Assembly (NCBI GenBank): GCA_951406725.2
Contig: OX597821.1
Location: 64,914,001-64,978,000, forward strand
From: Octopus vulgaris
Lineage: Eukaryota
DNA length: 64,000 nt
Direction of reading: 5' to 3'
In this document: one piece after another, positions 8,495 to 62,314 of the stretch
Layout: the number at the start of each line of letters is the position of its first letter
How positions within the stretch are numbered: position 1 is the first letter of the stretch
Notes under the pieces: model-generated
The model's input: the letters and a program-made list of their open reading frames with translations, nothing else
Database searches by the model: none
Told to the model about the DNA's origin: nothing
Translations under genes and position numbers: made by a program

Positions 8495-8743
8495 ATGTAT
8501 ATTCCCATTACGTTATGTTCAAACGCTATCTTGTCCTTAACACTTCTCTAATTATATGCAAGTAAGATTTATCAGAGTTTGTTAGATTGTACGTATAACA
8601 CATGTGTACATGATAACATATATATTTATATCGATAGATAGATAGAAATGGTAAGAGAACAAAAGAATGAAAGAGTCCACGATATTATGTAATTAGGGGG
8701 ATTTATCTGTAAATATGATATGTGACGATTGTTCGGTAGCGAT

Positions 8744-8804
8744 GATAAAACTCCGAGTTTCGGATGTCGGGGCGGAAACCCACGCCGGCATCTCTTCAGT
8801 TATC
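8744..8804 (-). ncRNA. Minimal type-I hammerhead ribozyme within an inverted repeat (arms 8705-8767 and 8827-8889)
   Basis: rc: GATAA CTGAAGA GATG..CATC C GAAA CTC G GAG TT TTATC; stem I GAUAA/UUAUC, near-palindromic stem III, GUU triplet. Confidence 0.75.
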
Positions 8805-8939
8805 GGGCCATCGAAAAATTGCTATAACATCCGAATCTCGGAGTTTTATCATGGCTACCGAATAATTGTCACATATTATAATTACAGATATATATATATA
8901 TTTATATAGAGAGATATTTTTATACATATATATATCCCT

Positions 8940-9210
8940 CTGCAAAAAGATCTCAAATTTTATTTGATTTGCTTTTCGCAGGAAGGAAAGTTTCTTATTG
9001 AAGATACGTCTCGCCTTCACCTTCGAAACGTAGAGTAGATGAAACCATGGCGACTGAAGAAGGGTTTTTTTCTTTGTGTTATTTGTCCTGTACTCTATTT
9101 TTTTGTTGTTTAAAAGAAAAATGTCCAGTTCCTTGGGTTTGTATCTATGTTTTCGTTTCTCATTGTGTTCGACGTTTTTTGGTGTCCTGTACTCATATAT
9201 GCGTGTATAT
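8940..9210 (+). repeat. Short (TA)n-embedded element, GTCCTGTACTCATATAT-ended family
   Basis: Shared terminus with 1730-2003 and 7538-7690; contains a half-HHR-like CTTC GAAA CG TA at about 9021-9032. Confidence 0.5.
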
Positions 9211-11989
9211 ATACATGTAGAGGTAGGTACGTACATATATGTATATATATATATATATATGCATATGTTTTATTTATTAATATATATATATATATATATA
9301 TATATATATATATAAATATATATATATATAATATATATATATATATATGTATAAACATACATATAAATATATATATATATAAATATATATATATATATAT
9401 ATATATATATATTTCTTTATATGCGTGTGTGTGTGTGAGTAGATATGTGTATGTATATCTATGTATCTGCGTGTACATATGCGTGTGTATATTATGTGCA
9501 GATACGATTGTATATATGCAGGCGCAAATATCTGTCATATATGTGCAGAAATATATATATATATAACACGCATGCGCACATGCATGCATACACACATAGA
9601 CAGATAGACTTGCACGTGTGTGTGTGTATGTGTGTATTTGTGTGTGTTTGTGTATGTGTGTGTGGGGTTTTGTGTGTATTTACTTGAAGTCACAGAAGGT
9701 GTCGTTCTAAGTAAACTGTTTTTCAGCCAGCCAAGCATAGGGTAAGACTAACAAATCAGAAAGGCCACACACACACACACACACACACACACAGCCCAGA
9801 TTTCGATAAATATTAAATAAATATTGATCTATATAGCCGTATCGTGTACTTTCTTTCGCTTTATAGCGCCTCACACAAGTGTGACATTACAATTTGACTC
9901 TATTGCATATACATATATAATCATACGTACGGGCTTACACGTGAACATCACACGAAAATACATACGTACGTACATACATAAGCATATATGTTTGTGCCTG
10001 TGTCTAAATGTGTGTGTGTGTGTATATACCTATGTATACATATGTTTATTATGTTGAATTGAATCGCTTTCCTTCTTTACAACAATATACCGAGAACCAG
10101 TTATATCTATAGAATGCAAACGGTTTAAATAATAAATAAATATAAAATAGAGATTTCAAAAAATACATTAAAAATGTTAAATAAACGAAAATACAAATAA
10201 ATATAGCATTAAAAAATGATTAAAATATAAGGCAAAAATCAATAAATCAATAAAGAAAGCCACATATCCCGTCTAGACTGCCAACGTTTAGTTAGTTGCC
10301 AACATTGAAGAGAATATAACATCTATTTCAAAACTACTTCCATTTCAAATGTCTTAGAATTAGTGTCGGTTTGTGTGTGCATGCGTGCGGTCGTGTGTGC
10401 GTTAAGTGCTTTCTCTCACTCCCTCTCTCTTTCTCTCTCCCCCTCTCTCTCTCTCACACATTCACTAACTGTATATATATGCATATATGCATATATGTAT
10501 ATATATATATATATGTATGTATACGTACACACATACATATTTGTATATAATCAGGTGTGGAAATATATATTATATACATAAATATAGATATGAATGTATG
10601 CATTTCTGCTATACATATGTATGTGCATTTGTATTATAAAGAATTTACGCTAATATATAGACATATATACATGCATATATATATATATATATATATATAT
10701 ATATACGTACAATCATATTTGTGTGTGTGTATATATATACGCACGCACACTCATATATACATATATATATATATATACTTATGTGTATACTGTCTATAGG
10801 TGTTATGTCCGTCTTTGGCATTGTATATGTCATATATATATATATATATATATATATACACGCACACATTTATACATGCAGTTTCGTGTAAGTGTATATG
10901 TTTGCTTCCATATATCCATACATACAAACATACATGAATACATACACATCACACACACACACACACATAAGTACACACACATACATAAATACGTACATAC
11001 ATACATACATACGTACATATCTATTGACACGCAAGTACATACAAGAATTCCTACATACATTTTTGCACATTCATATCTATTTCTTGTTCATATTTCTAAT
11101 TCTTCTGTCGACTTAAAATGTCTGCCTGAAGCAACAATAACGTAAGCAACCAGATTGAAATTTGTTTACGTACGGCGATAGAAAGAAGACAAGAAGTCAA
11201 GTGAAGCAAATATTCTACGTTAAATGTTGTATAGATTGGAATCTCTCGTCTCTAACTAAATAATATTTATTGCATTTAAAGTTGGTGTGTTTTGTGTGTG
11301 GGTTTCTTTTTTTTTTATTTGGTATTTTAGTTTTCTTGTTTTCCCATTTTTTTTTTACTTTCCATTTCTTTTTTTTTTTTGTATTTTTGTGTTTTTTGTT
11401 TCCCTGTTTGTTTTTCTTATTCTTTTGCATTTCTGATATTTTTGTTTGTGTTGAAATAAAAATAATGATTCTTAATATAGGCACAAAGCCACGTATTATT
11501 TGGAGTGCTGTGTTGTTGGGGTTGATATATTCGCTTCAGTCTCCATTACAACCACCACCAGCACCACCACCGCCATCACCATCGCAAAACCAACAAAACC
11601 ATCACAACCACCACGACCGCGGCAGTCGTTTACCTATCAAAAGAACATCTACGTGTTCCTTCTATGTGCTAAAAATATCAACAAATATCCCTTATACCTT
11701 ACTGTCTTCAGAATAACAGGATATTGGGTTCTAGATGCGTCTGTTACACTATCATAGAATTAGTTCACCATGAAGGGTAGAATACTTCGAACATAACTAT
11801 ACTCGTTCAGATATGACCTAGGGCTCAATTTATTACGACGCAAACAAAAGCTATACCATTGTATCGACAACTGAATAATGGAAGGCACTGTCGATTTCAC
11901 AGCATTTCAAGAGAAAGCTGACTGATATACATATATATAATTATATATATATATATATATATATATATATATATTTATATATATATATA

Positions 11990-12541
11990 TCAAATGTAAG
12001 GATATAATTCTTTTCGAAAAAAAATATTTTCTCGAAAAAAACTTTATCAATGGCCAGTATATTAAAAAAATACCTTTAACGGTTAAATTTATAAACAATT
12101 CATAAATGAGGGCAAAGGAAAACATTTCTAATGCCAAATATGCCGAAAAATTGGACATATTGTCCATTAACCATATAATATTTTCACAATACGCACGCTA
12201 CTCGAAAAAAGGTCGAAAGAAATTTCTAAAAATTCCATTATTACCATATCGGACCGATTTCAGAGTTAGCTACTAAGAGCCCTCTCTTCGTCAGTGATAC
12301 ATGTGGCAGAAGAAATAAATGAGATACTTACTCATACCCATGGAAGAAGCAAATACTAAGTCATGGGCACAACTAAGTACCCCAAATACATCCAAAATAG
12401 AAATACACCAGCCCATTCGAGGCAATTTTTTCGAGTAGCGTGCGTATTGTGAAAAAATTATATGGTTAATGGACACTATGTCCAAGTTTTCGGCATATTT
12501 GGCATTAGAAATTTTTTCCTTTGCCCTCATTTATGAATTGT
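11990..12541 (-). mobile_element. Non-autonomous PLE-like element with inverted arms (12095-12210 / 12426-12541) in (TA)n
   Basis: About 115-bp inverted repeat, internal HHR, (TA)n flanks. Confidence 0.65.
12246..12300 (-). ncRNA. Minimal hammerhead ribozyme (slightly degenerate)
   Basis: rc: GTATCA CTGACGA AGAG..CTCT GAAA TCGG TC CGATAT; GUC triplet, stem III one change from the palindrome ACCGGT. Confidence 0.75.
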
Positions 12542-60700: not shown

Positions 60701-61786
60701 TATATATATATATACATAATTCTCTAAAAGGGATATAGACAGTAACTGCTCGATAACATAAGGGACTAAAGCCATCTGAATATGGCTAGGGACAGGGCAG
60801 GGTGGTGGGGGTGTTACTGTTGCATTTAGCCCCAGGCGAACATTGACGTCACCAGAAAGGCTCGACACACATATATATATATATATATATATATATATAT
60901 ATATATATATATATATATATATATATATATATATATATATATACAGATTGTATGCATATATATAGATAAATATAGATATATACATTATATACATTATATA
61001 TATGCATATATATAAACATACATATATACATACATATTTATATATATGCAAACACACACACACGCGCGCATATATATATATATTTATATATATATATATA
61101 TATATATATATATATATGCACACACATACACACGCGGCGCGGACGCGCACATATATAGGTTTACTTACAAGCATATGTGGAGACATTAGTGTTGTTTTTA
61201 TCAATATATTTAAACAGATGGAACAAGAACAACAAATGTCTTTACGAAATGACCATTTGCTTTCATTTATTCTTTTGTCTTATTTATTTACCATTTCCTT
61301 TCTTGTGTTTCATTTACGATAATCATTTAAGCATGCTATTAAATACTTTTATAGATTACTTTGCATAACAAATCTGGCACCAATTTTCTTATTTTTGTGG
61401 GCGTGGTGGTACTCCACTCTAATGGAGTCCTAATGCTGCGGCATATCTAGTGGATAATTAGTAATTTTTCGTTCGTTTCTCTTCGCTTTTCTCGTTTTAC
61501 CTTCCGTAAAGGCAATCGTGTGCAACCCTACTTGAATGTGTAGTTGAAAAATAAAAGAGAAACCCTTCTTTTTTTATCTTTTTCGATGGCAGTGCTCGTA
61601 TTGATACATTGTATTTTTGTCGAGATGAAATTTTAAAAGTGACCATGGCACTTCTTAATATATATATATATATATTTCTTTTTTACTAAGGTACATAAAC
61701 ACCATTTCAGTTCTATATTTCAGAGATGAAGTATTATGTGCATTATTTACATTCGACGGATATTTGTCCGCATCTTGTTTGTTGTT

Positions 61787-61832
61787 AACACAACGTTTCG
61801 GCTGATATACCTTCCAGCTTTCATCAGGTGTT
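61787..61832 (-). ncRNA. Minimal hammerhead ribozyme, canonical core
   Basis: rc: AACAC CTGATGA A AGCTG..CAGCC GAAA CG TT GTGTT; stem I AACAC/GUGUU, GUU triplet. Confidence 0.8.
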
Positions 61833-62072
61833 TTGGGGAAATTTCGAACTTCAATTCTCATCCCTAAGGTATTTTTCGATGTCGTCGTCATCGTCGTCGT
61901 CATCATCGTCGTCGTCGTCGTCATCATCATCGTCATCATCGTCATCATCATTATTATTATTATTATTATTATTACTATTATTATTCAAGTCACTGCCTGG
62001 AATCGAGCTCGGAATCTTGGGGTTAGTAGCCCGTGCTCTTAACCACTTAACCCAGATTCGAAATTTCCGCAA

Positions 62073-62118
62073 GACATCTAATGAAAGCTGGGTGGTATAT
62101 CAGCCGAAATGTTGTGTT
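62073..62118 (+). ncRNA. Degenerate mirror copy of the 61787 hammerhead
   Basis: GACAT CTAATGA AAGCTG..CAGCC GAAA TG TT GTGTT (G5A change). Confidence 0.55.
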
Positions 62119-62314
62119 AACAACAAACAAGATGAGGACAAATATCTGTCAAATGTAAATAACGTATAAACACCATTGTTTGTCAGGTGAGTTGGTAAAG
62201 GACTAGAAAATTACTGACGATTTTTTTGTAAGGTTTAGGAGTTGCAATTCATTGAAGATTTGATTGGAGAAATATCGATATAATTTCCCACTTAATATTC
62301 ATTTGAAATTTGGC

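Follow-up and report, generated by a model that had tools for sequence, protein, structure and literature searches.

Hammerhead ribozyme motifs near the 3' ends of Penelope-like elements and in ORF-less tandem units in a 64-kb window of the Octopus vulgaris genome

A stretch of 64,000 nucleotides from Octopus vulgaris (assembly GCA_951406725.2, contig OX597821.1, positions 64,914,001 to 64,978,000 of the forward strand), referred to here as the window, contains 19 sites at which a minimal type I hammerhead ribozyme (HHR) can be drawn. The window is rich in (TA)n and carries two remnants of reverse transcriptase (RT) and GIY-YIG endonuclease (EN) genes, PLE-A and PLE-B, which belong to Penelope-like elements (PLEs). 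In this study, the sites were sorted into 12 families; on sequence grounds, 11 sites were assigned to families that are 3' ends of PLEs bearing an open reading frame (ORF), 4 were assigned to ORF-less units and 4 received neither assignment. The motifs are real and abundant, and they do not form one class. We consider it probable that they are hammerhead folds lying near the 3' ends of PLEs from at least three lineages and in a few ORF-less tandem units, and that both were inserted by PLE enzymes able to nick the two DNA strands and to start cDNA at two fixed positions on the RNA.

Hammerhead motifs in the window and in the genome

An original prediction from the letters of the window had described about 19 motifs in about a dozen families and had expected HHRs to be highly abundant in the genome. 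A hammerhead-like core with stems could indeed be drawn at all 19 coordinates, several of them worn or weak (28219, 62073, 53021, 12726 and 53566), and the core CUGANGA...GAAA...UH with stems I and II, which defines a minimal type I motif, was found above chance. A loose type I descriptor gave 13 matches in the window against 2.0 ± 1.4 in 30 local dinucleotide shuffles, with 3-4 of the 13 resembling chance, and a strict descriptor gave 6 matches against 0.0 across 20 shuffles. In 78 random 10-kb stretches the strict descriptor matched 19 times, against 0-1 in controls; this extrapolates to ~68,000 motifs genome-wide, and the density of strict motifs in the window was ~4-fold above that of the random sample. 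Moreover, exact searches of the 2.8-Gb assembly with four tight patterns, which span parts of the motif and not always a whole HHR, returned 37,359 + 4,539 + 2,116 + 1,737 = 45,751 matches, and the reversed controls returned 0. Both counts supported the predicted abundance. Since the 3' ends of families F8, F10 and F6 (14, 13 and 13 BLAST hits in the 78 stretches) far outnumbered Neptune ORF hits, which occurred in just 3 stretches, solo copies are in excess. Rfam reported no hammerhead in two short loci, nor among the 150 of 544 whole-window matches that were listed, which were dominated by TA-repeat miRNA models. The loose-descriptor matches at 14204, 31713, 62214 and 63112 are regarded as probable chance.

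Core and stems differed between families. At sites 19804, 44792 and 48954 the core carries U3-A8 in place of C3-G8. In the clan of 30805 and 53157, pair 4 of stem I was C-G in 17 and G-C in 7 of 30 unbiased loci, pairs 1-3 were kept in 28-29 of the 30, and core position 6 was U instead of A in 19. The covariation of stems that had been proposed therefore stood between families and subfamilies, where compensatory changes occurred, but there was none within subfamilies. The palindromic stems III listed in the original prediction are present; in minimum free energy folds, the two stem III palindromes paired for F1 and F3 only. The claim that the families share nothing but the core was too broad, as 30805, 41765 and 53157 have a common stem II and 23204, 61787 and 62073 form a single family. 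Dimer cleavage of core variants has reportedly been described by Lunse et al. in 2016, as cited in a review. Other HHR families not seen in the window occurred at random-sample loci L073, L137, L126, L118 and L135; some of them combine a U3-A8 core with stem III ACGCGT or ACTAGT.

Penelope-like parents of six families

The islands had been interpreted as non-autonomous elements or solo pseudo-LTRs (pLTRs) moved by TA-targeting Neptune enzymes, with attachment to a PLE ORF as the proposed check. Both kinds of element exist, but truncated PLEs account for 11 of the 19 sites, in six families joined to a PLE ORF, and ORF-less units for 4 sites in three families (F2, F11 and F12). The assumption of Neptune-only parentage failed, since EN ends that appear to be of Hydra type lie upstream of two families and a third leads into a Poseidon-type EN without (TA)n targeting. 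The six families (PLE-A, PLE-B, F8, F1, F5 and F6) have the features of EN-bearing PLE ends, namely a collinear ORF in at least one copy, fixed 3' ends, an optional tail, 5' truncation and an inverted arm.

PLE-A (19625-21794, minus strand) is a 5'-truncated, young Neptune-type PLE with RT, a zinc-finger linker and GIY-YIG, and its HHR lies in the 3' pLTR (H17 at 19811; site 19804). The top copies are 99% identical, carry an 811-aa open frame in a ~3.75-kb unit and form partial tandems. Full copies (L237, L239-L244) have two overlapping open frames of ~495 and 811 codons, with ~170 nt of overlap, and the upstream frame had no Pfam hit. RNA-seq reads from a related organism were only 90-95% alike to PLE-A and were uninformative on splicing or ends. 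In one copy (L243:265-4250; run X16), summed contig depth was ~100-fold lower at the 5' end than at the 3' end, as heavy 5' truncation predicts. PLE-A is flanked by two same-orientation copies of F12 (window 19270-22386). PLE-B (44660-49085) is an inverted, two-armed Neptune-type insertion with a broken ORF and with one tailed and one short end; sites 44792 and 48954 are its two outward ends (HHRs at 44797-44828, minus, and 48959-48990, plus). Together with 19804, three sites in the window are thus pLTRs of ORF-bearing PLEs.

F8 (30742-30940, plus strand; HHR 30810-30837) is a solo 3' end between TA runs with a Neptune-type parent. In 2 of 30 top hits (L006 and L007), it was collinear, through a pyrimidine-rich untranslated region (UTR), with a Neptune-type GIY-YIG preceded by a CxxxxCxxC linker. 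An 80% identical sibling lies at 41670-41863 (minus; HHR 41770-41797; site 41765), and F10 at 53110-53295 (plus; HHR 53161-53187; site 53157) belongs to the same clan; no ORF was reached in F10. About 21 of the 30 top F8 hits start at one base right after TA, and the parent has AT just upstream; this shared start may be either a microhomology hot spot or a strong stop. PLE-A, PLE-B and the F8 parent all show the Neptune features of a CX2-5CxxC linker ahead of GIY-YIG and a (TA)n target.

F1 and F5 are 3' ends of PLEs that are probably of Hydra type. F1 (8635-8887, minus; HHR 8749-8799, minus; site 8744) is a two-armed insertion with the tailed end on the left and the short end on the right, and F5 (22529-22810, plus; H17 at 22785; site 22742) is two-armed with an inverted long tail at 22529-22638; a second, worn F5 copy with a long tail lies at 52808-53110 (minus; H17 at 53025; site 53021). 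A degraded RT/EN remnant was found upstream of F1 in 3 of 30 loci (L232, L173 and L181), the Hydra linker CxCX5C being one change off in L232. For F5, 1 of 30 loci (L332) ran, within its first flank, into an EN end with a clear CxxC-E-N-CxH, which is the Hydra signature in Craig et al. 2021 (PMC8557442). Extension of F5 loci L317, L328 and L332 by 2.5 kb revealed no further ORF.

F6 has a Poseidon-type parent. The copy at 61680-62170 is two-armed and not TA-targeted (H17 at 61792, minus, and a worn HHR with H17 at 62113, plus; sites 61787 and 62073), and an older subfamily, likewise the end of a Poseidon-type PLE, lies at 23135-23262 (minus; HHR 23209-23244; site 23204). The EN was reached in 9 of 68 unbiased loci, plus several loci of the older subfamily; it is a GIY-YIG with CCHH and no zinc-finger linker, and the targets are AT-rich but not microsatellites, as in the Penelope/Poseidon clade. 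About 60 nt past the EN end, A and B boxes stand at tRNA spacing and are followed by (AAT)n, a short body, the hammerhead and two 3' ends. In the window this tRNA-like head (61978-62047, minus) consists of the B box and the 3' part of the A-box region, then an (AAT/GAT)n tract, and it is 93% identical to the head of L302. Among the 44 unbiased copies that reach the head, 35 end within about -19 to +16 of it, mostly at -6 to +2, compared with 4 of 48 copies that end in the 44 nt before it (p=1e-12). Most full copies therefore begin with boxes at tRNA spacing, as short interspersed elements (SINEs) do, although F6 is not a lineage independent of its autonomous element.

ORF-less units and sites without a parent

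F2 (11990-12540, minus) is an ORF-less, circularly permuted unit of 504 nt with an HHR at 12247-12294 (minus; site 12246), a long end at 11990 and an inverted short-end arm at 12426-12540. A period of 467-506 nt was detected by marker in 8 of 16 loci; by eye, 10 of the 16 exceed one unit and read through the unit junction. Two complete HHRs were present in 2 of the 16, and the longest stop-free frame was 78 aa. The search gave 2,938 F2 candidates, with 96-98% identity among the top hits. F11 (53538-54680; H17 at 53571, minus, and 54375, plus; sites 53566 and 54319) is an ORF-less, circularly permuted unit of ~450 nt in a partial tandem with an inverted arm. The DNA upstream of the unit equals its own downstream DNA, and a PLE protein hit was found in 0 of 14 loci. 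As judged from their sequence, F2 and F11 are non-LTR retrozymes by definition: no ORF, head-to-tail arrangement and one HHR per unit. F12 (21795-22386, plus; H17 at 22092; site 22037), of which a further copy lies at 19270-19605, is a unit of 569 nt that begins with a repeat of its own last 28 nt; this recurrence, at period 569, was observed in the window copy alone, and F12 is likely a retrozyme as well.

F3 (12551-12793) is a fold-back insertion with HHRs at 12659-12688 (minus) and ~12730-12759 (plus), corresponding to sites 12655 and 12726, and with a ~75-nt tail on one arm. At least 900 nt of non-coding DNA lie upstream in one copy, and no ORF was reached, including in L221 extended by 2.5 kb; the sole match of a guessed upstream pattern was its own source locus. 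The top DNA hits had presented F3 as a fixed palindromic miniature inverted-repeat transposable element, but this was a ranking artefact, as unbiased loci show variable inversion points and upstream parent sequence. In the F3 fold-backs (L141-L170), 4 copy-private changes were in both arms and 19 in one arm, and the central loop lay in either orientation relative to the tail; the arm-shared changes and the two loop orientations fit formation at insertion. At site 28219 there is a weak HHR-like motif (28225-28252, minus) with a stem I of 2 bp, which had no relative among the loci fetched.

Two other features were noted. Positions 8905-9260 hold a TA-flanked repeat family, with 5 copies in 780 kb, in which the HHR half-cores stand in swapped order (GAAACGT ahead of CTGAAGA); it was absent from the original list of sites and is possibly a permuted or Naiad-type half-core element. 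Elsewhere, L061:1686-2393 contains what we take to be a mariner-like transposase frame.

Insertion ends, rival explanations and significance

In most families the 3' end takes one of two fixed positions, short or tailed, which lie ~35-130 nt apart and downstream of the ribozyme; the cleavage site is not one of them. The 5' truncation is variable, with scattered 5' ends in the unbiased sets. In two-armed copies the 3' ends were paired: 32 of 34 unbiased F6 copies had one short and one tailed end, none had two long ends and 2 had two short ends (p=3.5e-8). The same pairing was found in 16 of 16 two-armed F3 copies (28 unbiased loci, 2 partner duplicates dropped), in 8 of 9 F1 top hits, in 4 of 4 PLE-A copies, and in the window's own PLE-B, F1, F2 and F3. 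Direct flanking repeats of 10-13 bp, which are target duplications, were present in 14 of 24 two-armed F6 copies with both ends placed. The islands had been described as bounded by (TA)n. This applied to four families, in which a TA run stood just past the expected 3' end in 23 of 30, 27 of 30, 28 of 30 and 12 of 14 loci against a background of 14-30%, but not to F6 (23204, 61787 and 62073; 1 of 30), and the distance of the sites to TA runs inside the window was not significant (p=0.12). In F2 and PLE-A, ATAT follows the long site in the template. Different families are nested in the same TA runs throughout, for example in L245, L263, L273 and L425.

One short and one tailed end per inverted copy would be expected if the two nicks both served as primers and the RNA had two start sites. 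One nick would prime at the downstream RNA site and the other nick at the upstream site, and both cDNAs would usually stop after 100-400 nt and then join head to head. The outcome would be hammerhead islands, either solo or two-armed, of which most are dead copies. For the ORF-less units (504, ~450 and 569 nt), a PLE enzyme acting in trans may use multimeric or circular RNA as template, and the ribozymes would cut solely in tandem or dimeric RNA, perhaps helped by protein.

The tRNA-like segment in the F6 3' UTR may be an internal RNA polymerase III (Pol III) start that gives short, SINE-like templates, a proposal for which the chances appear evenly balanced. A Pol III start at the head would account for the copies that stop there, and snap-back at a hairpin could do so as well; between these two the matter also looks about even for Pol III. 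A joint reading, which we hold tentatively and place somewhat below even probability, is that a tRNA-derived Pol III promoter entered the 3' UTR of a Poseidon-type PLE, a short way upstream of the hammerhead and the RT start sites, and that this PLE steadily sheds a SINE from its own tail. In the same reading, PLE integration in three clades and in the retrozymes obeys one rule: each nick of a staggered cut is primed at a fixed RNA site of its own, the two arms use different sites, and the enzyme is probably a dimer.

Several observations weigh against the main explanation, of PLE ends and ORF-less units, or its parts. All unbiased pattern loci come from one contig (C1), and the Neptune, Hydra and Poseidon clades were assigned by motif, with no tree. 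No parent was found for F3, F10 and 28219, and no shared terminus links any retrozyme to a particular PLE. The pairing rule has exceptions in the two F6 copies with two short ends and in one F1 copy with two long ends. Two of the nine ORF-linked F6 loci (L371 and L372) resemble a single duplicated event. Short F6 copies diverge by 8.4% and ORF-linked copies by 10.7% (p=0.02), with a consensus dominated by short copies, and comparison of the two groups gave no diagnostic positions. The F6 head had no Rfam tRNA hit (in two short loci) and no default ARAGORN call; ARAGORN called it solely at relaxed thresholds, which give many spurious calls. In RNA-seq data from the related organism, F6 was equally represented on the two strands and read ends did not pile up, a pattern consistent with read-through in host transcripts. 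Finally, the head coincides with a small natural hairpin (5 bp), and F3, which has no Pol III boxes there, likewise shows hot spots of 5' ends where a hairpin or TA microhomology lies.

Some of these points are shared by the explanation that all islands are 5'-truncated PLE debris, in which tandem units are locally amplified pLTR pieces, the tRNA-like hot spot is cDNA snap-back and no independent RNA life cycle exists. About 6 F6 copies are perfect fold-backs at the hairpin, the lack of subfamily-diagnostic sites and RNA end pile-ups would be expected, and local pLTR amplification is discussed by Li et al. 2026 (10.64898/2026.07.22.740005). Yet F2 copies are dispersed, 96-98% identical, cross the unit junction without TA or ORF and have two start sites of their own, and ~20 F6 junctions at -6 to +2 are not fold-backs, and the debris explanation appears rather improbable. 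It is doubtful, though to be taken seriously, that F6 is a true SINE in which a tRNA head was fused to a PLE tail, the ORF-linked copies being chimeras of a Poseidon element that later gained the SINE as its 3' end. The majority of copies that reach the head do end there, and the order head-(AAT)n-tail is SINE-like; however, the ORF-to-head junction is identical in the long-body and short-body subfamilies, which indicates that the head travelled with the ORF since before their split, although the order of events is not fixed by these data.

Two further explanations carry much less weight. If all islands were independent non-autonomous mini-elements moved by the Neptune enzymes of the window, the excess of solo over ORF-linked copies, the ORF-less units F2, F11 and probably F12, and the start base shared by the F8 top hits would follow readily, but the collinearity of six families with PLE ORFs of three motif types refutes the idea at 11 of the 19 sites, and the scattered 5' ends of the unbiased sets and the missing (TA)n targeting of F6 also contradict it. 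We regard it as very improbable. Chance matches in AT-rich repetitive DNA, an origin that would suit 28219 and the 3-4 weak loose-descriptor matches, have practically no probability as a general account: the strict scans (6 against 0 and 19 against 0-1), the exact matches with 0 in controls and the compensatory pairs refute it for all but single sites. PLE ends and ORF-less units, both inserted through two priming sites, remain the probable explanation of the motifs.

Much of this picture is familiar from other animals. Cervera and de la Pena 2014 documented massive numbers of solo minimal HHRs, in many families, as truncated PLEs; they also reported pairs on opposite strands separated by 100-700 bp, the U3-A8 core, and dimers that cleaved weakly. 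The HHRs described here resemble theirs in the many families per genome, the mostly solo state from truncated PLEs, the opposite-strand pairs, an extra base ahead of stem II, the U3-A8 variant and the palindromic helix III. They differ in number, as one pattern alone gave 37,359 exact matches against ~4,000 HHRs in coelacanth and ~9,000 in Xenopus, counts obtained with different methods, and in that parents from three clades coexist in 64 kb. Vertebrate retrozymes were tied to pLTRs, with 1 of 9 dimers cleaved, by Li, Clavereau and Pollet 2026 (bioRxiv 10.64898/2026.07.22.740005), whose sampling, as presented there, was mainly of vertebrates and included no mollusc. Like metazoan non-LTR retrozymes (Cervera and de la Pena 2020, PMC7229834; Li et al. 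2026), the units found here lack an ORF, occur in tandem and contain a single type I HHR per unit, and PLE mobilisation has been proposed for both; unlike them, they are 450-570 nt long, dispersed as partial tandems of 1-2 units, and have PLE-style short and tailed ends, inverted arms and (TA)n targets.

The PLEs themselves agree with those of Craig et al. 2021 (PMC8557442), in which EN-bearing PLEs have a tail, an inverted arm and a TA bias. As in the Neptune, Hydra and Poseidon clades, there is RT with a C-terminal GIY-YIG, pLTR partial tandems, an inverted 5'-truncated arm, a tail often at one end only and a (TA)n bias. The tails here are ~35-130 nt against 30-40, the complementarity of short and long ends was quantified, and PLE-A has an extra upstream 495-aa frame. 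For the Poseidon element PAc of Anolis, Frangieh et al. 2024 (PMC11167929) found in vitro that the tail is the interval between two RT start sites and that cutting and extension take place on both strands, and they predicted a dimer. The octopus elements likewise appear to have two start sites delimiting the tail, with the HHR upstream of them and a cut that does not mark the ends. With PAc, the strands were not seen to differ in start site, nor template and target to share homology, whereas here the two sites are paired one per arm and ATAT follows the long site in F2 and PLE-A. The predicted F6 head recalls schistosome SM-alpha and Sj-alpha (PMC6765202) and the Helenus and Cassandra terminal-repeat retrotransposons in miniature (PMC10886601), in which a Pol III-type promoter adjoins a hammerhead or lies within a terminal repeat. 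In contrast to these, the tRNA-like segment of F6 is part of the 3' UTR of a Poseidon-type PLE that bears an ORF, and F6 copies form neither tandem arrays nor LTR pairs but are dispersed, two-armed and flanked by target duplications.

Solo minimal HHRs from truncated PLEs and PLE-derived retrozymes are already published, and the abundance of the former has been known since 2014; the variety of families described here is a census result and not a new class. What is new is the census and the tRNA-like head inside an ORF-bearing PLE. A literature search, with most subscription journals and Repbase outside its coverage, found none that dealt with hammerheads in octopus, with a PLE headed by a tRNA or with twin priming in these elements.

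In conclusion, two findings appear worth following up, the cross-clade rule of one short and one long end and the candidate tRNA-like promoter in a PLE tail. The rule bears on how PLEs finish integration and why a tail is present at only one end, and it turns the two start sites known in vitro into a directly testable prediction of pairing. Young Neptune copies in this genome, which are 99% identical and carry long open frames, suit such a test, and the retrozymes offer natural substrates for the proposed mobilisation by PLEs in trans. If it is true, the Pol III promoter in a PLE tail would show an HHR-bearing SINE arising without a long interspersed element.

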